DNA of 64,000 nt. Origin: Macrostomum lignano. Lineage: Eukaryota. Below are positions 40,013 through 56,578 of this stretch, piece after piece (the stretch's first letter is position 1; each line of letters starts with the position of its first letter). The translations under genes were made by a program, and so were the position numbers. The stretch is from positions 496,001 to 560,000 of the forward strand of contig NIVC01000362.1 in the NCBI GenBank assembly GCA_002269645.1, read 5' to 3'. A model generated the notes under the pieces. It saw only the letters and a list, made by a program, of their open reading frames with translations. It was not told the origin of the DNA and searched no databases.

Positions 40013-40076
40013 AGTAGTATTATTAAATTACACGCACCCCACATTTTTACATGTAAAAATGAATATAGTCCCCACC
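40013..40076 (+). repeat. Left terminal inverted repeat
   Basis: agtagtattattaaattacacgcaccccacatttttacatgtaaaaatgaatatagtccccacc matches the reverse complement of 61057-61120 at 60 of 64 positions. Confidence 0.92.
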
Positions 40077-40330: not shown

Positions 40331-40875
40331 TTACCGCAATCTAATACGCAGATAGTTCATCGCGAAAGAACGCAAACGATTATAACAGCGCTTAAACAGA
40401 TTCTCGGCGCCACCACCACTAATCATGCTCGCTAGAAAATCCTTCAAACCACCACCACGATGCAGTTTAAAGTATAAATAAAACGAAATCCATATACCAC
40501 AGTGCAGACTTGTTGGTTCTTGAATAGCAAAACGCGAATATTCCCAATTTCCCCCTCCACAATTCCGTATAAACCACCGACGTATTAACTCACATGGATT
40601 TAACCCAAGGAATCGAAATACTCTCCCTTCCTAGAGCCCCTCCTACCCAACCTAAAACCCCCCACCCATAACAAAACCCAATGAGAACCCGGCAAATTTG
40701 AAGTATCGGTATTCACGATCAGAAAATAATGCCTTCTGTCTCTCGGGATTCGCGGGATACTACTCAACAAATCGACAGGAAAAATACCCAAAAAACAAAC
40801 GTCTTTAAAACCGTTACATAGAATAATCACAACACGTTGCAAGAACAAGTTCGTTACACCTTCGCCTCGCCTCAT
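40331..40875 (-). CDS. Adenain-like cysteine protease (about 181 aa; one frameshift near 40602)
   Basis: GIFPVD...IVNTDTSNLPGSHWV (catalytic His)...EYFDSLG. Adding one T continues LNPCELIRRWF...IQEPTSLHCGIW (Gln/Cys)...RIRLR*. The ATG overlaps the MCP stop (ATGA). Confidence 0.92.
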
Positions 40876-42194
40876 TTCCAAGCGGTTCCTGGCACAACGT
40901 CCCGCAGTTCGGTAATCTGTAGTTGCTTGTCGAAAACACCACCGAAAATAACGTTATAGACCTCCGCTGTAGCCGTTCCAAAACGCATCTCCAGTCGGAC
41001 ATTCCCTTCCTTATACAATTGTACCGTCGGCGCAACTCCCCCGTCAGATCCTAACGAATACGCGAGTATCGTATACCCTCCGTTGTAGTCCGCCATCGAG
41101 AACCCCAAATCCCGTCCTTGTAAATACAAACCCAGTTGTTGACGCAGAGTTGTATACTCCTTTGCACAATCCCCTGTGAAGTCGAATTGACTAGGCCGTG
41201 TCGGTACCGCCTCACCATTTACGTAAACTCCAACGCTGATCAAATTCGCATGCACGAAATTGAACGGATTTGTCGCCAGACTTCCATTAAATGCAGTATT
41301 TCCAACGACTACCACCAGCAAAAGACGTGGCACTCCGCTCGGAAACAGATTTTCGTGCGTATGGCTTAACGACCCTTGCGGTATTGTGAACGTACCCAAT
41401 GATAAACTGCGATGAGGGTACAAGGCATTATGGGTCTTCAAACCATGTGCATGGGCTCCAATCACACTGGCAGATGGCTGAACATACCGCAAACGAAGCT
41501 CCGCACTCTGAATCTCAACCTCGTAATCCTTTAACACTGCCTCACCAATCTGTGCGGCACTTAACACGAATTTGCTCTTTGCCGGTAGTAACTTTATCCG
41601 CAAAGGCGTCTTTGACAACAAATACCGTGGCTGACGAAATAGATCCAAAAACAAAGGCCCTGAAACCGTACAAGTTCTCCCACCCGCAATTAGTGCCTGT
41701 CGCTTCACTCGCCCAACGTTCGCGACGCCGGTGGCATTCATTTTTCCAGCAGTGTCCTTGTAAAATCCCCAGGCAGCCAATCCGCCGTCTTGTCCCAACC
41801 GACCATACTCCAAAAGCGTCAGAAGCATGGCCTTGTACGGATACATGAAGCTCCCGCCTTCAACGACCGTATCTCCTATCCGCAATTGCACGTCTTCGAA
41901 CAGCGTACTCACCACCATGTTATTCAGACAGACATAGTTTTTCGCAGCATCCACAGCCCCTCCACTCTCGTCTACTACTCGGATTCCAACAGTTAGAACT
42001 GTTTCTTGTAAGTCGACATACAAATCTCCAGCCGGTACAATCTCGAACTCAATTGGCCCTCCTTGCGTAATCCCATGTTGAGGCTGTATATCCGTGTAGC
42101 GACTGTCCACAACACTGAATTGTACTGGTGGGCTGTCAAATAACGTCAACTCACTTTTCAATCCAGCGACGTCAGGCCCCAACAACTGATCCAT
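40872..42194 (-). CDS. Major capsid protein (double jelly-roll type), 440 aa, intact
   Basis: N-terminal KSELTLFDSPPVQFSV...GGPIEFEI...YVDLQET and later GSLATNPFNF...VYVNGEAVP resemble Maverick MCPs. Size and position also fit. Confidence 0.92.
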   Translation of the reverse strand: MDQLLGPDVAGLKSELTLFDSPPVQFSVVDSRYTDIQPQHGITQGGPIEFEIVPAGDLYVDLQETVLTVGIRVVDESGGAVDAAKNYVCLNNMVVSTLFEDVQLRIGDTVVEGGSFMYPYKAMLLTLLEYGRLGQDGGLAAWGFYKDTAGKMNATGVANVGRVKRQALIAGGRTCTVSGPLFLDLFRQPRYLLSKTPLRIKLLPAKSKFVLSAAQIGEAVLKDYEVEIQSAELRLRYVQPSASVIGAHAHGLKTHNALYPHRSLSLGTFTIPQGSLSHTHENLFPSGVPRLLLVVVVGNTAFNGSLATNPFNFVHANLISVGVYVNGEAVPTRPSQFDFTGDCAKEYTTLRQQLGLYLQGRDLGFSMADYNGGYTILAYSLGSDGGVAPTVQLYKEGNVRLEMRFGTATAEVYNVIFGGVFDKQLQITELRDVVPGTAWK

Positions 42195-42587
42195 CTACTT
42201 GCCAAACAAACTGAATAACTTTTTAGTCGTGGCGCTCGGCTTTTTCTTTTTACGTATGCGTCTAACTCGCCGACCACGTCCAACCTGTTTTTTTACCGCA
42301 GGTGTCTTTCTGCTTATACCCTTTTTCCTGACTCGTCGTCGCTTAACCACAACTGGTCCATCAGTAGTCGTCAATCTACGTTTCTTACCCATTCCAATCG
42401 TCTTCTTCAGGAAGCTTAAACCGCCCTCTACTAAATCCTTCCGAGCTCTACGTAGCACGGGATATATCACTCTCTCTGTTAAATTCGTCAAATATCCGTA
42501 TCCCTCGTACACAGGTATCGAACTCGACCCACCACCCGTCCGCGGCTGTGTACTAGGTCCCGAATAGAATGCAAAAACCGGATCCAT
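42195..42587 (-). CDS. Small basic core/DNA-condensing protein, 130 aa
   Basis: MDPVFAFYSG...GGG...PVYEGYG N-terminus and an Arg/Lys-rich C-half. Its stop abuts the MCP ATG. Confidence 0.75.
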   Translation of the reverse strand: MDPVFAFYSGPSTQPRTGGGSSSIPVYEGYGYLTNLTERVIYPVLRRARKDLVEGGLSFLKKTIGMGKKRRLTTTDGPVVVKRRRVRKKGISRKTPAVKKQVGRGRRVRRIRKKKKPSATTKKLFSLFGK

Positions 42588-42616: not shown

Positions 42617-43759
42617 CTACTTAAAGTGCTTTGCTAATACCCGTGCTGTCTCTTTATCTAGATCTGATTCAGCCAACCACTGACCTCTCGAGTCGGGCAT
42701 TCCCTCCCACTTGACAAAATATCGCCTGCCCTTCTTCCCCATACGCTCAACACGCTCGACCCGATCAATTTTAACAACCTCCGCCTCAGGTTCAGCCACT
42801 AGAAGCAGTTCACCTTGGTTGAATCGACCCTCCAACACTGTCGAATCGTCCTCGGGGTCTAACAGACCATAAGACGGTGGCTTCGTAGAATACACCCGAT
42901 GAATTCGATACACCCTATTACTCCATGTCGTTGTGTAACCCTTCTCAAATTTTCCCTTTTGACGTGCAAGTCGTACCCAATCACCAACCTTAAAACGCGG
43001 AATAGGCCTCACATCGTCGCCATACAACTCCTCCCACACCATGCCCTGCAGATGGCCATCCGCACTCACATCAATGGGGCTACGACCATTTAAACTGCGG
43101 TGTGGAGAGTTATTCAACGCAAGCTCTAATTTTGGTAGAACATCAAACCACCGGGCCAGATTTCGAGTCCGAAATAGTCGTAGTAATCGCTCCTTCACGG
43201 TGCGTATCAATCGCTCAGCCATGCTCGCTTTGTAGGTACTCTGACTTACGAAAAATCGTACGCCCTCACGCTTTAACATCGACTGAGTTTCTCGCCCAAG
43301 AAACTCTCGACCAGCATCGCCTTGTAAGTACAGCGGTTTAAACCCCGTGCGGAATATCTCATACAATACACGGCTCACCTCACTTGGCTTCTTCGTCTTC
43401 AAAGCTCTCAAGCGAGCCAACCTAGTGAAACAGTCGACTAATACGAGGATGTACCTGTAACCACGGTTTTCGTCCTGATATTGCGGTAAGTCTGCCAAAT
43501 CAATCTGCATTTGAAATTTTGCAACGGGCGGTAGTTGTATTTTCGGAGTTTTGAACTTCCGATTCGACTTCTGGAACAGATGTATCTCCTTCGTCCTACG
43601 CACCCACTTGTCAACAACAGCCTTGGCTTTTTTTTGCGTTAACTCCGGATACCTCCGCCTCAAAACTCGTATAAATTGCTTCTTATTACCACTAAACGCA
43701 GTAGGGCGTTCCAAGTCGAAAAATGCCACGTCCAGAAACTTAAAAAAAATCGCTTCCAT
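42617..43759 (-). CDS. int: Retroviral-type (rve) DDE integrase with C-terminal chromodomain, 380 aa, intact
   Basis: QIDLAD, LQGDAGREF and ASMAERLIRTVK (D,D,E). The C-terminal YFVKWEGMPDSRGQWL is chromo-like. Confidence 0.95.
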   Translation of the reverse strand: MEAIFFKFLDVAFFDLERPTAFSGNKKQFIRVLRRRYPELTQKKAKAVVDKWVRRTKEIHLFQKSNRKFKTPKIQLPPVAKFQMQIDLADLPQYQDENRGYRYILVLVDCFTRLARLRALKTKKPSEVSRVLYEIFRTGFKPLYLQGDAGREFLGRETQSMLKREGVRFFVSQSTYKASMAERLIRTVKERLLRLFRTRNLARWFDVLPKLELALNNSPHRSLNGRSPIDVSADGHLQGMVWEELYGDDVRPIPRFKVGDWVRLARQKGKFEKGYTTTWSNRVYRIHRVYSTKPPSYGLLDPEDDSTVLEGRFNQGELLLVAEPEAEVVKIDRVERVERMGKKGRRYFVKWEGMPDSRGQWLAESDLDKETARVLAKHFK

Positions 43760-43960: not shown

Positions 43961-44003
43961 CCCCAGACTCGATATATTTCACGTAAAATACAATGCTTAT
44001 ACA

Positions 44004-44676: not shown

Positions 44677-46073
44677 TTACCTACGCCGTCCGGCCCGAAT
44701 TGCTCGAACTAGATTTGCCGTCCCCGCAGCCGTACCGGCCAATCCCGATGTAATCCCTAGAGCCGTGCCAATGGCTGGCAAAGCAGAAATTATCGGAGCA
44801 AGAAACGGCAGGAAACCACCACGCTGTACCAAAATTTCCTTCCTGGCTCTAGTTGATTTTTTCTCCTTCAACAATTCTTGTATCGGTTTCGATAGCGTTC
44901 TAAACGTTTCTTGTCACACGACTTTAACGGCACGCGTCCTTTTACGATATTCAAAAGAAACTCAACCAGGCAACGCACCTCGCCCGGACTTAAACTTCGC
45001 AGAAATCGCTTGCGCTGGTCCAATCCCGAAGCCTCGCGACAACTTGCAATAGGAAGGCACACTGGGACAATGATCGCGCGCTTTGTACGCTCTTTTCTGT
45101 CAGCCCGGTCATTGTCTATCATGCCTTCTACTGATTCCGACNNNNNNNNNNNNNNNNNNNNNNNNNNNNNNNNNNNNNNNNNNNNNNNNNNNNNNNNNNN
45201 NNNNNNNNNNNNNNNNNNNNNNNNNNNNNNNNNNNNNNNNNNNNNNNNNNNNNNNNNNNNNNNNNNNNNNNNNNNNNNNNNNNNNNNNNNNNNNNNNNNN
45301 NNNNNNNNNNNNNNNNNNNNNNNNNNNNNNNNNNNNNNNNNNNNNNNNNNNNNNNNNNNNNNNNNNNNNNNNNNNNNNNNNNNNNNNNNNNNNNNNNNNN
45401 NNNNNNNNNNNNNNNNNNNNNNNNNNNNNNNNNNNNNNNNNNNNNNNNNNNNNNNNNNNNNNNNNNNNNNNNNNNNNNNNNNNNNNNNNNNNNNNNNNNN
45501 NNNNNNNNNNNNNNNNNNNNNNNNNNNNNNNNNNNNNNNNNNNNNNNNNNNNNNNNNNNNNNNNNNNNNNNNNNNNNNNNNNNNNNNNNNNNNNNNNNNN
45601 NNNNNNNNNNNNNNNNNNNNNNNNNNNNNNNNNNNNNNNNNNNNNNNNNNNNNNNNNNNNNNNNNNNNNNNNNNNNNNNNNNNNNNNNNNNNNNNNNNNN
45701 NNNNNNNNNNNNNNNNNNNNNNNNNNNNNNNNNNNNNNNNNNNNNNNNNNNNNNNNNNNNNNNNNNNNNNNNNNNNNNNNNNNNNNNNNNNNNNNNNNNN
45801 NNNNNNNNNNNNNNNNNNNNNNNNNNNNNNNNNNNNNNNNNNNNNNNNNNNNNNNNNNNNNNNNNNNNNNNNNNNNNNNNNNNNNNNNNNNNNNNNNNNN
45901 NNNNNNNNNNNNNNNNNNNNNNNNNNNNNNNNNNNNNNNNNNNNNNNNNNNNNNNNNNNNNNNNNTCGCTTGCGCTGGTCCAATCCCCGAAGCCTCGCGA
46001 CAACTTGCAATAGGAAGGCACACTGGGACAATGATCGCGCGCTTTGTACGCTCTTTTCTGTCAGCCCGGTCAT
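44677..46073 (-). CDS. pX/mu-like (GGFLP) Maverick protein, about 145 aa, reconstructed across the gap (46073-45966 joined to 45005-44677, one extra base near 44882)
   Basis: Joined reading: MTGLTEKSVQ...LRGLDQRKR|FLRSLSPGEVRCLVEFLLNIVKGRVPL...RNRIQELLKEKKSTRARKEILVQRGGFLPFLAPIISALPAIG. The GGFLPxLxPII motif resembles the adenovirus pX precursor. Confidence 0.8.
45142..45965. other. Assembly gap (824 N) flanked by a duplicated 136/137-bp overlap
   Basis: 45006-45141 equals 45966-46102 except for one extra C in caatcccc. Confidence 0.97.
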
Positions 46074-46131
46074 TGTCTATCATGCCTTCTACTGATTCCG
46101 ACTGTACTTGCTTATAATCAATCGTCTCGTA

Positions 46132-47103: not shown

Positions 47104-47817
47104 TCAAAACTTGCTTATAATATCCTCCTCCTTGATAGTCTCCGGACGCATATAAACAACCTGGTGAGTGTCACTCGGAAAGACATTCGTCCGTATGCGT
47201 ATCATATCCGGCGTGTCCTGTCGTAAGTCTATGAAGAGATAGCTGAAGGCCTTGTCACCCGTCGCGTCGTCATAAGCCTGCACCAGAAATCTACTAGCTC
47301 GGGGGTACATCTGCCGACCCAAATGTTCAACGGCGCTACGATCCCTAACATTTCGGCTTAAACAGATATAACTCGTCGATAAACTTCTTTTTCTTGCCTC
47401 AGGATCCGCAGGGTCAAACAAATTTTGGCACAAATAAAGACAAGTCAATGGCGTATGATGAGCCAATTTGGTGAATACAGCGGTAAAAGCGCGTTGCTTT
47501 GCAACTTCACCCTGCAAATCATCAACAACGACTAAATCGTGCGGCTTGAATCTAGCCAACAACTGATCGGGGAATCCCTGTACGAAGTGACATTCGCCAC
47601 TTCCACCCAATGTCCAACATTCTCGAACTCGTTTTTCCTCAGACGAATGTAACTCTGTACCGTGACACCAAATTAGACGCCTTGGTACTACTCGAAACAG
47701 ACCCAAGCGCTCCCTTACCAGTCGAAGCACCCATTCAGTCTTTCCCGAATTCGAAGGACCTGCGACGATAAACGTCGAGTCATGAGCAAATCGCAAGTCG
47801 AATGTACGCCTGTCCAT
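47104..47817 (-). CDS. A32/FtsK-like genome packaging ATPase
   Basis: GPSNSGKT (Walker A), LVVVDDL (Walker B), TKLAHHTPLTCLYLCQNLF. First ATG at 47817. Confidence 0.94.
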   Translation of the reverse strand: MDRRTFDLRFAHDSTFIVAGPSNSGKTEWVLRLVRERLGLFRVVPRRLIWCHGTELHSSEEKRVRECWTLGGSGECHFVQGFPDQLLARFKPHDLVVVDDLQGEVAKQRAFTAVFTKLAHHTPLTCLYLCQNLFDPADPEARKRSLSTSYICLSRNVRDRSAVEHLGRQMYPRASRFLVQAYDDATGDKAFSYLFIDLRQDTPDMIRIRTNVFPSDTHQVVYMRPETIKEEDIISKF

Positions 47818-48239: not shown

Positions 48240-48385
48240 CCCACTTAATTGTACCAAAAGAACCAATTGCATTTGCTTATACACACAGTGGTTAAATCCA
48301 CGAGCAGTATATTGTATTAATAATCAAAGTGACAAGCCGCCACCAATTCCCACCACCGACCGACGGGCTCCGGGCGTGACCAGCA

Positions 48386-49127: not shown

Positions 49128-52100
49128 TCAAGTCAACCGCCAATGACCAAATGGGAGGGATGAGTAGGGATCGAGCCAGGCTCGCTTCGTGTCGAAGAAG
49201 CTAAGCGCCTGCTTGCGCTGCTCAAGAAGATAAATCTTCTGTCGTCGCGAAGTAATCGTCCGCATCGTTACATGCTCCAAAACTCGATCCTTCAACACAC
49301 TCAAAAATACATTGTGCTTCATACCTCTTACAATCGACTTCGACACGCCCTTGCAACGCACAATCTGACAGAGGCTTTCCTTTGCATACACCATTGAATA
49401 GTTTTTCGGGCGTAGAAATGCAAACTCCAACAGTGTACAACCGGAAACTTCATCTTTCCAGGCCATTAACTTCCCTTTATACTTTGTTGTATAAAGCGGA
49501 TGAGAAGGTGGATAATTACTAGTGTCTAACACACCGCACTCCACCAAGTCTTTAAACAATGTCTCCTGAGGACTCGTCTCCGGGTCGGCCATAACCAATG
49601 CCAGGATCAAACTATCCGTATCTCCACCAAGCACGCGGGCAGAAGCAAGCGACCTATGGCATTGAATCCTTGAATAGAAAAACTCGTAGACAAATGTTTT
49701 CGCAAGGTCCAGAATAGCGCTACCAATCAGAATTGGCTTGTTTAGCAATACTCGACGAGGAGTCAAACTCACGCCCGCTAGACGATCTGTATACAGAATC
49801 ACGTCCATAAACTCCTCTTTAGCGACATACGTTTCCAACTTCTCGGCAGTAGTACACATGCGATAGCTGAGTCGGTCTCGAACTCGCTGCAGAAACTTGC
49901 CGTACACAGCATTGTTCAATAGTTTAAAGAAATCTCGATCGAAATCGCTAGTCGCCTCAGACCGCCGACGAATATTATGTTCAATATATTCCTGTAGAAT
50001 AGGACCTTCTACGAATTCGAGAACACGATTAACCCGCGTCACGCGCATGCCTAACTCGAGGTAAAGACGCAATGCTCGATGATGTACAATGTACCCTGTT
50101 TTATGCGTAACAGAGCCAATTAGTTTCCTTGTCGGAGAAGTGAATCGTTTTACGTCCTCGTATACCTCCGCATTCCTCTTCCTGGGATCAAGCTGGCGTT
50201 GCAGACAAACCCAATCCTGCTTCATATGCTCGGTTAAATAGGCACTATCAATTCTTTCATGGCCAATAGCCAGAGGTAGATCGGCAGTTGAGTCGTGCAA
50301 AAACTTTGGGTAGTAAAGATCGACATTCAATAACGCCCCTCGTCCATTCGAGCAATAGCTAGACAACCAAGCCAAAAACTTGCTCGACTTGTTCGGATTT
50401 TCCAACTCAGCTGCCTCATCATCAACTGATAGATTTTCAATCACTTCACGGGGCAACCAACGATAGGCCTTATACGGCAGCGCCTGCACCATACAACTGG
50501 CATAAAGAGAATTAGCATCAAGGTAGGCCAAGTGAGTGCCATACGGTGCATTCCGCCGTAGTTCTCTTAAATTGTCGTCGTCGTCATCCAGCTGCCGACG
50601 ACATTCTTCTACCATTGGATTATTTGCCGTAGTAAGATGGCGAGTGCCAAAACTGAACCCACCTCGAATCGAAGCTTCAACCTCGGAGTACATACGAGCG
50701 TCTGTAAACAACTCGATCGGCTTCTTCACCTTCAACAGACACGCAGCCAGACTATACATTGGCGATCCGAGAAAATGACACACATCCAAACCGTATTCTC
50801 GAATTGCAGTCCGACGAAAACTCTCAAATACGTCGCATAACAGTAGTACATCCAACAGTAAATACGCAGTCAGATAGTCACGCAAATTGGCACAATCAAA
50901 CTCTTGCCAACTCTGCTGAGCGCGTGTGTACTCCTCCTTAGAACACTCTTGCCGGGTCATTGCGTCGTAAAACAAATCTCGCGATGGCAGTTCAGTCACA
51001 CTGTCCAACTTCTCTTCAGAGTCCAAGTAACAATACGGAAACACTCCCTTCTGCTGCAGAGTAGACAGTTGGAGTTTAGGATAAACATTCAGCAAATCTC
51101 GACAGTGTACCAATTGTTCCTGCGTCAAACGGTTTGCCAGACTAGCTAGACTTGTCGACAAGTACGCAAACGTGTCCTTGAAGCAGATTTCAAACCAAAC
51201 AAAATTCTTCTTCTTCTGCTTTTGTTGCTGCGGCCGTTGACTGCCAACCAGCAGCGGTACCTTGAACTTTAATGAAAACGTCTTAAACCGTTCCCTAGAC
51301 TCGGGAAGAACGTGCAGTTGAACGTCGTCTTCTCCACTAAACACATTGTACACCTCACGAACAATTATTTTACCGTCATATCCTCGAAGATTGTGCAGGT
51401 AGACGATAATTCGATAGCGCTGCAGGGCAAGTTTTCGATTGCACGACATGCAAGCCATTCCACGTGGAAGACCACTCAAATGACAATGATCCCAGACTTG
51501 AGACTCGTCAGCGGAAAACTCGCGACGACAGACGTAGCATCGATCTGCGCTAGGACGCTGACCTAGATACTTTCTAAGCATTGGTCTATAAGTCATCTTG
51601 CTAGTCGCATTAGTTACTTCGAATGCAAGCTCGCGCAGAGCCAAGAGAAACCTGCCAATACAATCTGTTGTGCCAGGCGTAGAATAAAACAACTTGCATG
51701 GAGTATTGTATCTGCTCAACAAATCCTCCCTCGTTACACTATCCAAATCCGGATCGACAACCAAACGAAAGGCCACACAAACGGGCACGTGAATTTGTAA
51801 AACACGGCTGTTAGCCGTAGGCACTGGCAGGCCCTTGACGAGGCCCCTCGATGCCTTTTCAACAGGTACAAGTAGACTCTCAATATCAGCATAAACCAAA
51901 TACAGCGGCGGCAGTCGAGTCTCGTAGGCTGAAAAAGACAAAATGCTTTGCCCTCCTCTGGTAAAACCTCCTCCGTGACTGGCTTTGGCGTTCGAATGAA
52001 GCCGCCGCCGCCGCCGCCGCCTGGTTGCTCCTCCGTCGTCTGGCCACACACGTGTTCTTTCAAGATATAATCCCAAGACGTGGTGTGAATAAAGCTCGCC

Positions 52101-53574
52101 AGACATTCAGGACAATAGCGCCGGCGTTTAGCACGAGAACTCAACAGCCTATCCAGATTTAGCACCGCCATGTAGTGTCCATACTTGAATTCTGCGTAAG
52201 GTGGTATGAACAGACAATTGACTGGCGCAAGGTCACCAGTGGAACGACGAAAATTAAAAAACAGCACGGCAGTATTCGTGGCATGACTCCAGACAAACAC
52301 ACGCATCAGTCTAATTCGAGGGTTCAGCCGGCAAAACTTTCTGTAGCTCCCAATTGAGTGACGAGTCACTCCGGCGCGCGTAAATCGAAAGCTTTTCAGC
52401 CAAGGCCTGTAAGACGCCTTTCGCCTTTTACGGGCTTGCCCTTCGACCTGTGAGGAAAAGACGCTCGACACGACAGCATACATAAAACAATCATGCTGAT
52501 CTGCTCGGTGCGGGCGTAGAAACAAAACCGCTCCCGGCATACGACCAACAGCCAGTGGAACGCGGAATGGAACGGAACGGGTCGGAGCGGATTCTGTTGG
52601 ACCGCCGCCCGCCTGCGCGCCCGCCGCCGCCGCCGCCACGCCCGCCGCCACCACCACCGCCGCCCCGCCACCCGCTCCCCACACGTCCTGCTGCTGCTGC
52701 CGACGACTGCTAGTGTTCGACTGTAGTAGTAGATATTTTCGGCGGAATATGCACAGCATAACGTCGACCTTGACAACGCCGAGGAACTTCCAGTTACTAC
52801 CTCGGGACTGAAAGTTGTCTAATTTAGCTACCAGATCGTTTGTTGCCTCGCTGTACCATTGGTTGAAAACGTCCTCAGAGAGAAGAAGTACACGGCGGCC
52901 GGCGGCTGGAGCATTCGCATCGAAGGAGACCATAACGACTTTGGAATTGAAGAAGGGCGCGATTACTTCTACCTCTTCGTTGTGGGGGGATTCACCAGCA
53001 GCCGTGTCATTGGCGGGGGGATAACGGTACGATACATTTTTACATTAAGATGTATACATGTACGGAGTAAACAGTCCGCAGATCCGAGAGAGTTAAAAAG
53101 ACGAAAAAGTGGAACTTGCAGTTGTGGAAGTAACTCGCTGGGTGGTTCGGTCTCGCCATCGTCCTCGTCCAGCAGAGGCGTGAACGTCAGAAAGTTCGCC
53201 CGACCTCGGTGTGCGGACTCGGTATGTTGTACCGACCAGCCTGGTGGAGTGTCCTCTTCGATTAGCCGACGCACTGGTTCTCGAAGTAAAAGTTGGTCTG
53301 GTTGATAGCACGAGCCATTGTGCGAGTGCCCATGGAGGGCGGCTTGACTGTTGAATCTCTGCCGGCACACGGGGCATCTGATTTGTTTCGTCGTCGTCGT
53401 CGACGGCTGGAATGGTGTTGGCGATTGTTGGCGACGGGGTGGTTGTGATAATCGCCTAAATAGTTTGCTCGGTGGTAAAAATAAGGAAGGAATGCACAGC
53501 CTTAAGTTTGGTGGACAGTCCAAAAATGTCCTCCGCCGCGTGGTTAAACTGTATTTTACTTTGCAGAGATACAA
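49128..53574 (-). CDS. pPolB: Protein-primed family B DNA polymerase with N-terminal terminal-protein region, about 1,480 aa (frameshifts near 51948 and 53017; 5' start unresolved)
   Basis: Exonuclease motifs YADIES and HNLRGYD, EndoVII-like DHCHLSG...CMSCN insert, and polymerase motifs YLDANSLY, KLLNNAVYGK and GDTDS. Upstream frames carry RGSNW, DCFMYAV, HYMAVLNLDRLL, CPECL and a CPVC..H..H zinc finger. Confidence 0.95.
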
Positions 53575-53867
53575 TTATGTAGACAATTTGAATATTTAGG
53601 AATGAACAGCAGGCTAGTAAGTAGTAGGTCGTTGACGGTGGTTGAAAGAATAGAATCGTATAACTTAGTCAATGGTAGTGTTTTTAGGGGTCTGAAGCAG
53701 TTCGAATGGATCATCATGATAAACAAAAATCGTTGGGTACGCATGGGAATTTTACCTTCGGGTAGTAATAGCGGTAGGTGGTGTTTTTTCAACTTGGTAG
53801 GGGCTCGGTTGAATTTAGGTGTTTATTACTACAGCAGAAAATCGTTGTTGTTAATATCAAGTGCATG

Positions 53868-55250
53868 TCAGAGCTCACGACGAATGATGCCGCCAACAAG
53901 ATGGGCTAGATCGGTCGTAGATGTATCCGATCTGATTAGAATTTCGTGTACGTTCGAGTAGTCCTGGTAGTGTCGTGTAAACGCCTCGTCTAGCGATCGT
54001 AGATAGTCCAGGGAGATGCCAGTCTCCTCACCGCTGCGTCCGCGCTGCGCGATGCGTTGAATGGCCAACTCCGGGTCAATGCGCAGGTAAATAAGCGTCG
54101 TGTTCGCGCCGGTAAAGGGTACCCCAGTCGCTTCGAGGACGTCTAGTTGGCGCTGAGCAATCGCCCATTCGGTGTCAGACAGCGAGCCTTGACGGTGTAG
54201 TACGTCTTGGAATGCTCGAGCCGACCCGAGGCAGCGGTCGAGGATAACCACCTTGTTGTTGGATTGTTGGTTAACCTCATTCCGGACCTGGGTGGTAACA
54301 CAAGATTGGCAAAAGTAGCTATACCGTGCGTGTCTTTCGACATTGGTTGTACATGCAGTAGGAGCTATACGAAAGGAATTGCTAGATACTATAGTACCAC
54401 TTACTTTGCTGTCTCTGTCGAGCAAGTCGTGGGAGACGTGCTGTTGGAATGCGACGGCCGGAAGCTCGCCTCGATAGAATGACTGAAGCAGATTTACCGA
54501 GTCCGGGAGGAGCGGGTGTCGCGCGTACTGGTGAACAGGCTCGGGACCGAAGACGGCTTTGTCGGCCCAACCCTCGAGGCGGGAGGTGAGAGCCAGTTCT
54601 CGAAGCAACGTCGACTTCCCGGCACCGATTACGCCCTCCAGGAGAAAAATGCGAGACTGGCTCGTCATATTGGCTAGAATTGGAACAAATTCTGGTTTCG
54701 GAGCGGCTTCCTGACACAATTGTTTAACAATGTTGATCATTTCTAAAATCTGGCTAGTAGTCTTTGCACCTATTATAACGATCTTAAGGGAATGAAAAAT
54801 ATTGCACACCGTCCTATTGAGTGGAGCAGTACTACGGAGGGTGATGGCTTGTGGGAATATCTCCGCGTCGTAATACAGCCGAGCTGTGTGAAACGGCCCG
54901 ATAAAGTTTTTCAGGGTCGAAAATTTGAGTCCAGGATAGTGGAGCAGACCAACGGTTGTAGAGCTGATTATACGAATCGATGTTTTGATTAGTTTAATTA
55001 CTTTAAGGTGTATGAAATTCAGGGCACGTAGAAGTTGGACTCGGGATCTACAGCCATAAAGCGTGAGTAGTCCTCCGGGGTAGAACTGACATGAAAATTG
55101 GGGCAGTCCGATACGAAGCATACTTGGCTTGGCGGAGTATAATTTGGAGGGGATTCCCGCCTGGCCTAGACGTTTTTTTAGCCTATTTAAATCTAACTTT
55201 TCTCCTGGAGGGGTACTCGTTCTGGCTTGCACTATTAGTAGGACCAATCT
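53868..55250 (-). CDS. TBP-like domain (about residues 1-180) fused in one ORF to a deoxynucleoside kinase; predicted 117-bp intron 54288-54404; 5' end unresolved
   Basis: Two TBP-like half repeats: KLDLNRL...CQFYPGGLLTLYGCRS and YDAEIFPQ...CNIFHSLKIVIIGAK. Kinase motifs: EGVIGAGKST, GPEP, AFQQ, ILDR, RIAQRGRSGEE. No stop between the domains. Confidence 0.85.
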   Translation of the reverse strand, partial: RLVLLIVQARTSTPPGEKLDLNRLKKRLGQAGIPSKLYSAKPSMLRIGLPQFSCQFYPGGLLTLYGCRSRVQLLRALNFIHLKVIKLIKTSIRIISSTTVGLLHYPGLKFSTLKNFIGPFHTARLYYDAEIFPQAITLRSTAPLNRTVCNIFHSLKIVIIGAKTTSQILEMINIVKQLCQEAAPKPEFVPILANMTSQSRIFLLEGVIGAGKSTLLRELALTSRLEGWADKAVFGPEPVHQYARHPLLPDSVNLLQSFYRGELPAVAFQQHVSHDLLDRDSKVSGTIVSSNSFRIAPTACTTNVERHARYSYFCQSCVTTQVRNEVNQQSNNKVVILDRCLGSARAFQDVLHRQGSLSDTEWAIAQRQLDVLEATGVPFTGANTTLIYLRIDPELAIQRIAQRGRSGEETGISLDYLRSLDEAFTRHYQDYSNVHEILIRSDTSTTDLAHLVGGIIRREL

Positions 55251-55389
55251 CTGAAAAGAATAAATACGAGAAAAAATTCTGTATAACGGTTAAGATTTTT
55301 ATATATTTCTGGGTGATGCGTTTCCGTTTACGGAGAATGGTAGTTAGAGTTATAGGTATAGCTTCCCGCCACCAAGTGAACGCTAACGG

Positions 55390-56481
55390 TCACTGTGCGA
55401 AGACTTCATCATCTTCGCTGTCCATGGGCTCCGTCGAGGCCCCCGAGTCCACGTCCCCTAGCGCTGGGTTGGAGGCTGCAGCTTTACCCGCTTTGGGGAC
55501 AGTATTGGTAACACCGCTTACAAGATCTTTGACGGGAGTCACCGTGATCCAGTCTTCAGCTGCTGCTGCTGTTGTTGCTGCTCCAGTCGTCTTGGTGGGG
55601 CGTTTGGCGGGGCTGCGACGAGTTGGGCCTTGTCGTCGTTTTCGTCCGCTAACTGGTTTCACTAGCGTCGTCGTAGTTGTTGACTCTTCTTCCTCAGTTG
55701 CGGCGGTGGCGGCGATTGGAGTCGACGTAGTTGGGATGTGAAAACGCAAAGCTTGGGCTAGCATCGGCAGGTGTTTCGGGTCGTCGTCGACCAGTGTCAG
55801 CGAGCGAAGGGCGAGGCCGAGGCGCCATGTCTTGCTTTCCTTCTGACGATAAAGACTTGTGAGCTGAACGGAGAGATGGTAAAGACCGCTAAGTCCTCTC
55901 AGCTCGCTTGTGTCAACTTCACGCGGGTGTTGATTAGGCAGTGCTCGAAAGGTGAAACATGGTAGTGTAGGTTTTATGGCAATCCACTGGGCAAAGCCCA
56001 GGTCGCCTTCCTCGGTGGCGCGGGAGATGCGAAGCAGCGGCATCGGATCGCCCATTTGCTTTAGTTTGATAGCGATGCCTCTTTCGACTTGTCTAGCGAG
56101 AGCAAGGGGATTGAAGAGCAGTAAGAATTCATGGTCTAGTGAGTATGCACATGTAACAAGGATGGCGAATTCTTAAACTTACTTGATGCATTGTAGGAAT
56201 TTGCTGCAAAAGGCCGATGATGACAGTCCGATGGCCACCGCCTCACGGTCTCCGGCTAAAAACTCTCCGGCATCCTGTATTTGGATACCACGAAGAATCT
56301 CGACTGGGGTCGTGGTTTGAATCACTAGTGGGGACCTCCTGTCGACTTTGGGGGGCGTCCACGTTACGCTACGGAAGGTGCAGCTTGCTGTAGGAGCGTT
56401 GGGTTCGCCTAGGTGGAGATTACCAACGTCGGCTTGGATAGCACCCGGTTGGAATACGGATTCGGCAGCGAAACCAGCCAT
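55390..56481 (-). CDS. Two-exon protein (56481-56183 + 56092-55390), about 333 aa, possible OB-fold ssDNA-binding protein with acidic tail
   Basis: Two same-frame ORFs separated by taa-gtt-taa. Donor GTAAGT at 56182 and pyrimidine tract plus TAG acceptor at 56093 splice in frame (CIK|QVERG). Good Kozak context. Ends MDSEDDEVFAQ. The SSB function is inference. Confidence 0.6.
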
Positions 56482-56571: not shown

Positions 56572-56578
56572 TTTTATA
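56572..56578 (-). promoter_or_regulatory. Candidate TATA box upstream of the putative SSB gene
   Basis: TATAAAA on the minus strand about 90 nt upstream of the ATG at 56481. Confidence 0.4.

Follow-up and report, generated by a model that had tools for sequence, protein, structure and literature searches.

The closest described systems are the Mavericks/Polintons (adintoviruses, PMC8502044), and the element examined here has in common with them, as far as the available parts of that account go, terminal inverted repeats starting with AGTAGT, a protein-primed type B DNA polymerase (PolB), an RVE integrase with a chromodomain, a putative packaging ATPase and a length of ~21 kb. In the available text of the adintovirus paper (Starrett et al. 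2021, PMC8502044), a TATA-binding protein (TBP) is named once, as a figure-legend label in the section on non-animal hosts, and splicing is not mentioned. In contrast to that account, the TBP found here is an ATG-less exon behind a conserved predicted intron and beside a deoxynucleoside kinase (dNK). Polinton papers checked by term contained no mention of TBP, and no publication on a TBP exon or on leader splicing in Mavericks was found among openly accessible papers. The new feature of this locus is its splice arrangement, an ATG-less TBP exon with a conserved donor-acceptor pair.

The TBP mimics of beta- and gammaherpesviruses (KSHV ORF24; PMC7498053, PMC6541308) offer, in the available portions of these papers, a viral TBP fold proposed to serve late genes with variant TATA boxes and host Pol II; in contrast, the protein considered here is a 182-aa exon with the word TATAAGY and a predicted role, and no six-protein initiation complex was seen. 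TBP-like proteins of the Nucleocytoviricota resemble it as virus-coded TBP folds and are its neighbours in Foldseek and Atlas searches. The adenovirus E2 unit produces an ssDNA-binding protein and a protein-primed polymerase from one spliced unit in which downstream frames are started by splicing; unlike in E2, where a short leader exon carries the donor, the donor of the Maverick is placed far inside the upstream gene. Adenoviruses are not known to encode a TBP or a dNK. Flatworm spliced-leader trans-splicing (PMC8629364, PMC12582326, PMC9851317) shares with the locus leader genes, acceptors 124-489 nt past an upstream stop and the motif YTNCAG; in their available text these studies cover host genes, and leader use by a Maverick is our proposal. 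The reading we prefer for the locus, with a probability of about 0.5, combines an ATG-less TBP exon, alternatively cis-spliced to an upstream gene (UP) for a probable ssDNA-binding protein, with a role of this TBP as the late-promoter factor of the element.

The Maverick element and its TBP-like domain

The window, i.e., the 64,000-nucleotide stretch of Macrostomum lignano DNA that was analysed, contains a Maverick/Polinton of 21.1 kb between 65-bp terminal inverted repeats. Its main features outside the TBP region are as follows:

40012..40076, no strand: left terminal inverted repeat, 65 bp, 94% against the right repeat
40872..42194, minus strand: likely major capsid protein, 65-74% identity in three other families
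42617..43759, minus strand: retroviral-type integrase with chromodomain (PF00665, E 5e-7; PF00385, E 2e-5)
45142-45965: N gap of 824 nt inside the element
47104..47817, minus strand: putative packaging ATPase (Pox_A32, E 0.024, weak; Walker A visible)
49128..53406, minus strand: protein-primed DNA polymerase B (PF03175, E 7e-21), phase-0 acceptor at 53407, without ATG
61057..61121, no strand: right terminal inverted repeat; in a second copy, C297, the match to the window extends to both ends

The PF00665 score of the integrase (30.3 bits) is slightly below the cut-off of 32.6, and PolB of the window copy is broken over three frames. The 440-aa ORF at 40872..42194, which had no Pfam match, is presumably the major capsid gene, and the gene after the TATAAGC word at 47113..47119 is taken by us to be the minor capsid gene. 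No protease gene was located in the element, and the N gap falls in that region; a dUTPase fragment was detected by Pfam, and an Rfam search of the window gave no match. No 6-bp target-site duplication was present, as the flanks differ in both of the two Maverick copies with both ends; recombination or assembly may be the cause. Other observations in and around the window include an intronless frame of 2229 codons adjoining the Maverick (31287-37976, minus strand) that encodes SecA-DEAD, helicase C and OTU-like domains, a ~9.86-kb unit repeated in tandem about three times (about 6200-30000, from repeating ORF patterns), and an ORF near the right repeat (60088-60474, minus strand) whose stop overlaps a donor-like GTAAGT and which may be a first exon. 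In a rearranged copy (L008 on C1668), the 3' part of the TBP and the likely capsid gene lie next to each other and point in opposite directions.

On the minus strand, an open frame of 460 codons runs from 55250 to 53868; its residues 1-182 form the TBP part and residues 195-460 the dNK:

54705..55250, minus strand: TBP-like domain, residues 1-182, first ATG only at residue 44

The window frame holds a real TBP fold. The initial annotation had recognised both halves of a TBP-like domain from the sequence and had proposed a structure model as a check, and both the domain and the fold were borne out. The domain matches PF00352 with 25.8 bits (cut-off 22.9) in the second repeat, and its best PDB sequence matches are all TBPs (E 7e-4). 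The AF2 model built from a 20-row alignment is a full two-repeat alpha/beta saddle with a pLDDT of 94.5, compared with a poor model (pLDDT 50) from the single sequence. Foldseek matched this model to human TBP (7egb_P, TM 0.78, E 1.4e-9), all 30 ESM Atlas matches were TBP at 0.96, and the neighbours in both searches are giant-virus TBPs.

In yeast TBP numbering, two of the four canonical intercalating Phe are kept, one is Tyr and one is lost (the alignment is loose near the lost one), the paired minor-groove Asn are replaced by Leu and Ser, the TFIIA-contact residues are lost, and the acidic TFIIB stirrup is kept (D128, E130). The Phe pair of the C-terminal repeat and the second stirrup Glu are invariant in 20/20 rows, and contacts of the N-terminal repeat are altered. 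Compared to cellular TBP/TRF2 (PF00352; 7egb_P), the two-repeat saddle, C-terminal Phe and stirrup Glu are shared, whereas the element TBP has neither N-terminal tail nor own start and has lost the first Phe, both Asn and the TFIIA contacts. It is 19% identical to the TBP of the host, and an unrooted 20-row tree with long branches places it apart from host TBP and TRF2 (99/99). Its dN/dS is 0.14-0.29 in the measurable family pairs and 0.42 in one close pair, most pairs being saturated at synonymous sites; the measurable values of 0.14-0.29 therefore indicate that the TBP protein is under selection.

A TBP domain search of the M. lignano genome (G000) yielded 75 matches among 85 candidates, and 20 further loci were fetched in addition to those returned by the search. 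The TBP loci constitute six families, mostly 30-40% identical to the window TBP, and copies of the window family are 96-100% identical to one another. In the window family the frame is open from the acceptor in 3/8 copies; four carry a frameshift within the TBP and one is truncated. A frameshift near TBP codon 26 is present in genomic copies L005-L007 and in contigs of 3/4 RNA-like runs, and therefore much of the sampled RNA would be unable to yield this protein; these runs are assembled contigs whose type was only guessed as RNA, a guess supported by their GT-AG joints. The C593 family (L019-L030, L065-L066, L128) has 26 listed copies with an open TBP frame of 185 codons, 12 of which were compared and are >99% identical. 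Because a mapped copy has neither dNK nor most of PolB, this family looks non-autonomous.

Moreover, in a second, larger clade of Mavericks the TBP-like gene starts with an ATG of its own and the gene order is different (150 scored matches of 330 Pfam candidates, the 330 taking in host TBP and TRF2). This high-copy clade occurs on C414, C96, C136, C114, C878, C100, C130, C1407 and many more contigs (L076-L095); its TBP is ~28% identical to host TBP and is flanked by the ATPase on one side and a convergent PolB on the other. A third type of TBP-bearing Maverick is represented by L091. HMMER against 1.84 billion representatives returned eight matches, namely four close relatives, one cellular TBP, one named TBP and two repeats; the four relatives, from outside the M. 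lignano genome, have 33-39% identity, with Gln at the acceptor position in two. A word-index protein search with the TBP confirmed none of 52 candidates, and the single match of a metagenome scan was spurious on inspection.

TATAAGY words before the structural genes

In the structural half of the window element, the sense strand contains the following words:

48275..48281, minus strand: TATAAGC before the gene upstream of the ATPase
47113..47119, minus strand: TATAAGC, 46 nt ahead of the likely minor capsid ATG (43-51 nt in three other families)
46110..46116, minus strand: TATAAGC directly before the N gap
43995..44001, minus strand: TATAAGC before a 57-aa ORF upstream of the integrase
42312..42318, minus strand: TATAAGC, 124 nt before the likely major capsid ATG (158 nt in three other families)

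In four families, TATAAGY occurs 5, 7, 6 and 5 times on this strand of the structural half, with corresponding spacing ahead of homologous genes, against shuffle means below 1 (maximum 4 in 300), and 0-1 times each on the antisense strand and in the early half. The word TATAAGC was chosen after inspection of the same sequences, and over the whole window it is not enriched (9 seen, 8.0 expected). TATAAGY differs from TATAAAA in the 3' half of the box. When TBP binds DNA, the 5' end of the box is contacted by its C-terminal repeat and the 3' end by its N-terminal repeat; with this geometry, the altered contacts of the N-terminal repeat fit a box changed in its 3' half.

We predict that the element TBP would recognise TATAAGY ahead of the genes for packaging and capsid and would bring in TFIIB and Pol II of the host. 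Since TATAAGY precedes structural-side genes in 4/4 families, such a late-gene role appears more likely than host shut-off. The initial annotation had suggested a viral TBP that redirects or blocks host Pol II: the fold upholds the viral TBP, the stirrup and the TATAAGY words make the direction of Pol II plausible, and for blocking no evidence was found.

A TBP exon without a start codon

The region upstream of the TBP-like domain was resolved into the following features:

56572..56578, minus strand: canonical TATAAAA, likely host-read early promoter, ~97 nt 5' of the UP ATG
56183..56481, minus strand: UP exon 1, ATG at 56481, ends in phase 2
55522..56092, minus strand: UP exon 2 up to a conserved phase-0 donor at 55521
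55251..55521, minus strand: predicted alternative intron, 271 nt, GTAAGC ... TTTTCAG
53822..53827, minus strand: AATAAA, likely shared 3' end of UP, TBP and dNK, the sole one from 56554 to the polymerase gene

A TATAAA lies near the equivalent UP position in 6/8 copies; in the C277 and C1680 copies, the 1.7 kb next to the acceptor contain none. The UP intron 56182-56093 is spliced in 2/4 runs, and UP intron 1 of the C593 family in 3/4 runs.

The missing ATG and the acceptor at 55251, both pointed out previously, are general: in 6/6 families, TBP codon 1 is an Arg (coded AGA, CGA or CGC) straight after a pyrimidine-rich YAG in phase 0, with no ATG. The pyrimidine content of acceptor 55251 is in the top 0.7% of the 461 YAG sites of the element, and the acceptor is TAG instead of CAG in 1/6 families. 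Residues 2-11 form the first core strand (pLDDT about 95) and the first Met comes at residue 21-44; since this Met lies past the core strand and a phase-0 acceptor stands at codon 1, the TBP domain is therefore an exon. Over TBP codons 1-42, pN is below pS in 15/15 family pairs.

Upstream of this acceptor, a GTRAG donor is present in the UP frame, in phase 0, at a homologous K-x-L/V-S site (the slash marks the exon end) in 8/8 copies of the six families. Of 12 further loci, 11 have it as well, and the remaining one did not fit the acceptor pattern. In the available text of PMC8629364, GT[G/A]AG ranks first among the donor motifs of this type of host. Other Val-Ser pairs in long ORFs are GTRAG-coded in just 22 of 69 cases, and the chance of such a conserved donor is ~0.001-0.003 for 5-6 independent families. 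The distance from donor to TBP acceptor is 259-618 nt across families, and the simplest explanation for a conserved, otherwise unpaired donor so placed upstream of a conserved acceptor in matching phase is an intron.

In the proposed mechanism, retention of intron 55521-55251 would yield UP alone (333 aa), the retained segment supplying its last 43 codons and stop (55392-55390), and splicing would yield UP(1-290)-TBP, which in the window family would continue through the dNK to 711 aa by exon lengths. UP is probably an ssDNA-binding protein, judging from its homologue P0012, which leads in the ESM Atlas to Nucleocytoviricota clusters including Pox_I3 and DUF2738 (0.86-0.91, lead level); searches of UP against Pfam, PHROGs and PDB gave nothing usable and no significant Pfam or PHROG match. 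Homologues of UP in UniRef are labelled Macrostomum lignano.

Several observations count against this cis route. The splice from 55521 to 55251 rests wholly on conservation, and the exon side of the donor is weak (CTT/GT). The tail encoded by the retained intron has its own conserved motif in most families, and the Val-Ser pair may be selected as protein; an RV-x-SKDL-x-Y-like motif was seen in this tail in three families, with a partial version in one more (L031, L035, L036, L128), not in the window family or C1680. In addition, flatworm acceptors that resolve operons are seldom cis-spliced, according to the available part of PMC12582326. In favour of the cis route, contigs run continuously across the retained 55251..55521 intron, one of them also with the dNK intron spliced out. 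Among the matches listed from four runs for the window family and four for the C593 family, in which contigs show presence only, there was neither a joint into the TBP acceptor nor a leader-like loose end; X14 barely covers the stretch and X13 does not cover the TBP exon.

Other sources of a start were also examined. UP exon 1 is unable to supply the TBP frame because it ends in phase 2, in both families checked, and its shared use was discarded for this reason. A TATA-like word 55 nt 5' of the acceptor was rejected as a TBP promoter: no ATG follows it, and TATAAA occurs there in 1/8 copies. A 3-codon ATG frame ending at the UP exon 1 donor is confined to the window family, and no ATG/GTRAG micro-exon was found upstream of the TBP in 5/5 families scanned. 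In the public gene model P0017, this donor is likewise used, but its partner is an AG where the TBP domain ends; the model contains other odd splices and was not counted.

A less probable but serious competitor is that a host spliced leader ending in AUG is trans-spliced at 55251 and gives the start Met, the product being Met-TBP-dNK (422 aa by exon lengths) in the window family and Met-TBP elsewhere; both routes could share the acceptor. A 21-nt segment of the published flatworm leader has 61 exact matches in the genome, against 0 for its reversed control, and 9 of the 32 fetched continue as ATG/GTAAG with an Sm-like site and a three-hairpin fold. Acceptor 55251 fits the host trans-splice motif YTNCAG (PMC8629364), and a leader AUG has been reported as initiator for Schistosoma (PMC9851317), in the available text of both papers. 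The dNK acceptors, 2-5 nt before the dNK ATG in four families, were also counted in favour of this route, which however leaves the conserved in-phase donor 259-618 nt upstream unexplained. The one family of six with TAG at the TBP acceptor speaks against it as well, and so does nematode work, in which cis-splicing is favoured when an acceptor is preceded by an unpaired donor. The remaining 23 of the 32 fetched leader matches (L096-L107, L117-L127) are followed by exon-like DNA, not GTAAG, several in a common flanking context; they are possibly captured or retro-copied trans-spliced messages.

For the polymerase, the leader appears to be the better reading, because the own ATG of PolB in two families is replaced in four by a phase-0 acceptor, downstream of which no Met comes before residue 85-124 (two of these four have an in-frame ATG further upstream). 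It is likely that the spliced leader of the host, trans-spliced to the respective acceptors of dNK and polymerase, frees both from the shared unit. A more ambitious version of the preferred cis-splicing reading, which we regard as doubtful, is that this one regulated intron gates the late phase: its retention would give the ssDNA-binding protein, its removal a fusion of that protein to TBP on replicating ssDNA, coupling capsid transcription to replication, with the polymerase started from a leader AUG.

The dNK junction and its significance

Downstream of the TBP-like domain, the frame consists of the following parts:

54669..54704, minus strand: linker of 12 codons, also the acceptor tract of the dNK (AG ends at 54674)
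54405..54668, minus strand: first part of the dNK, own ATG at 54668, P-loop
54288..54404, minus strand: dNK intron, GT-AG, 117 nt, in frame and stop-free in this copy
53868..54287, minus strand: second part of the dNK to the stop, DR motif and lid

That the TBP runs without a stop into a dNK holds for the frame 55250-53868 (PF01712, E 6.5e-24; Drosophila dNK, E 1.3e-8), and the internal ATG (MTSQS) noted earlier as a start for the dNK alone is indeed present. All five dNK-bearing families have an own dNK ATG, 2-5 nt past an acceptor in four. The P-loop, the catalytic Glu of the EP motif, FQ, the (D/E)R motif and the Arg lid are intact. The intron, overlooked by the initial annotation like the donor at 55521, corresponds to 39 codons of the frame (283-321); its joint 54404-54288 was found in contigs of X1, X2 and X5 (3/4 runs), with a variant joint in the fourth, and no such intron was seen in the dNK of the other families.

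No AATAAA lies between UP and the end of the dNK, and the TBP-dNK junction is stop-free in 8/8 copies of the window family. With neither stop nor poly(A) signal between the two domains, a spliced chain would therefore run on through the dNK in this family, and a TBP made from an open copy is predicted to carry the dNK. The five other families break the connection, as the dNK is in a different frame in three, behind two stops in one and absent in one; a conserved coupling of the TBP to nucleotide supply, as once suggested, is thus unsupported, and a stop or frameshift between the domains, previously named as evidence against the fusion, is found in the four other families that have a dNK. The read-through is likely an incidental trait of one lineage, its dNK tail probably arising from lineage-specific loss of the TBP stop and being tolerated, not required.

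It is improbable that the fusion is a selected bifunctional protein tying late transcription to nucleotide salvage. The stop-free junction and the intact dNK motifs agree with selection, and a TBP stop before the family-specific dNK intron could invite nonsense-mediated decay, which would favour read-through; the TBP frame of the C889 family is likewise open for 130 codons across the dNK, in another frame. However, the fusion occurs in 1/6 families, one family has 26 open TBP copies without dNK, the dNK retains its own acceptor and ATG, and the window-family copies are 96-100% identical and therefore go back to a single event; a search of 7999 candidates of 365-2000 aa gave no longer homologue of the TBP, a weak argument. 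The overlap of the C889 family (L035, L038) has P about 0.001 by synonymous shuffling and is weaker in L031 and L034.

Least probable is that the TBP is a decoy sequestering host TFIIB, or is translated without a splice from Met44 or a near-cognate codon: the lost TFIIA-side residues and minor-groove Asn suit a decoy, and codon 2 is TTG, GTG, ATT or CTG in 5/6 families and all rows of a nine-row alignment have a Met at residue 42-44, but three of four intercalating aromatic positions are kept, the TATAAGY words are conserved, a Met44 start would remove a core strand and helix, and neither idea accounts for the fixed donor and acceptor.

By itself, the TBP-dNK fusion is of modest significance. 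With regard to the timing of Maverick/Polinton genes, the locus offers, in a laboratory flatworm, a testable scheme of a host-read early unit, a splice that would enable the TBP of the element, and a variant TATA before the structural genes. The findings also suggest that genes of such elements are overlooked or wrongly fused when annotation relies on ATG starts. Moreover, the element may depend on the AUG of the host leader, which would narrow its host range.
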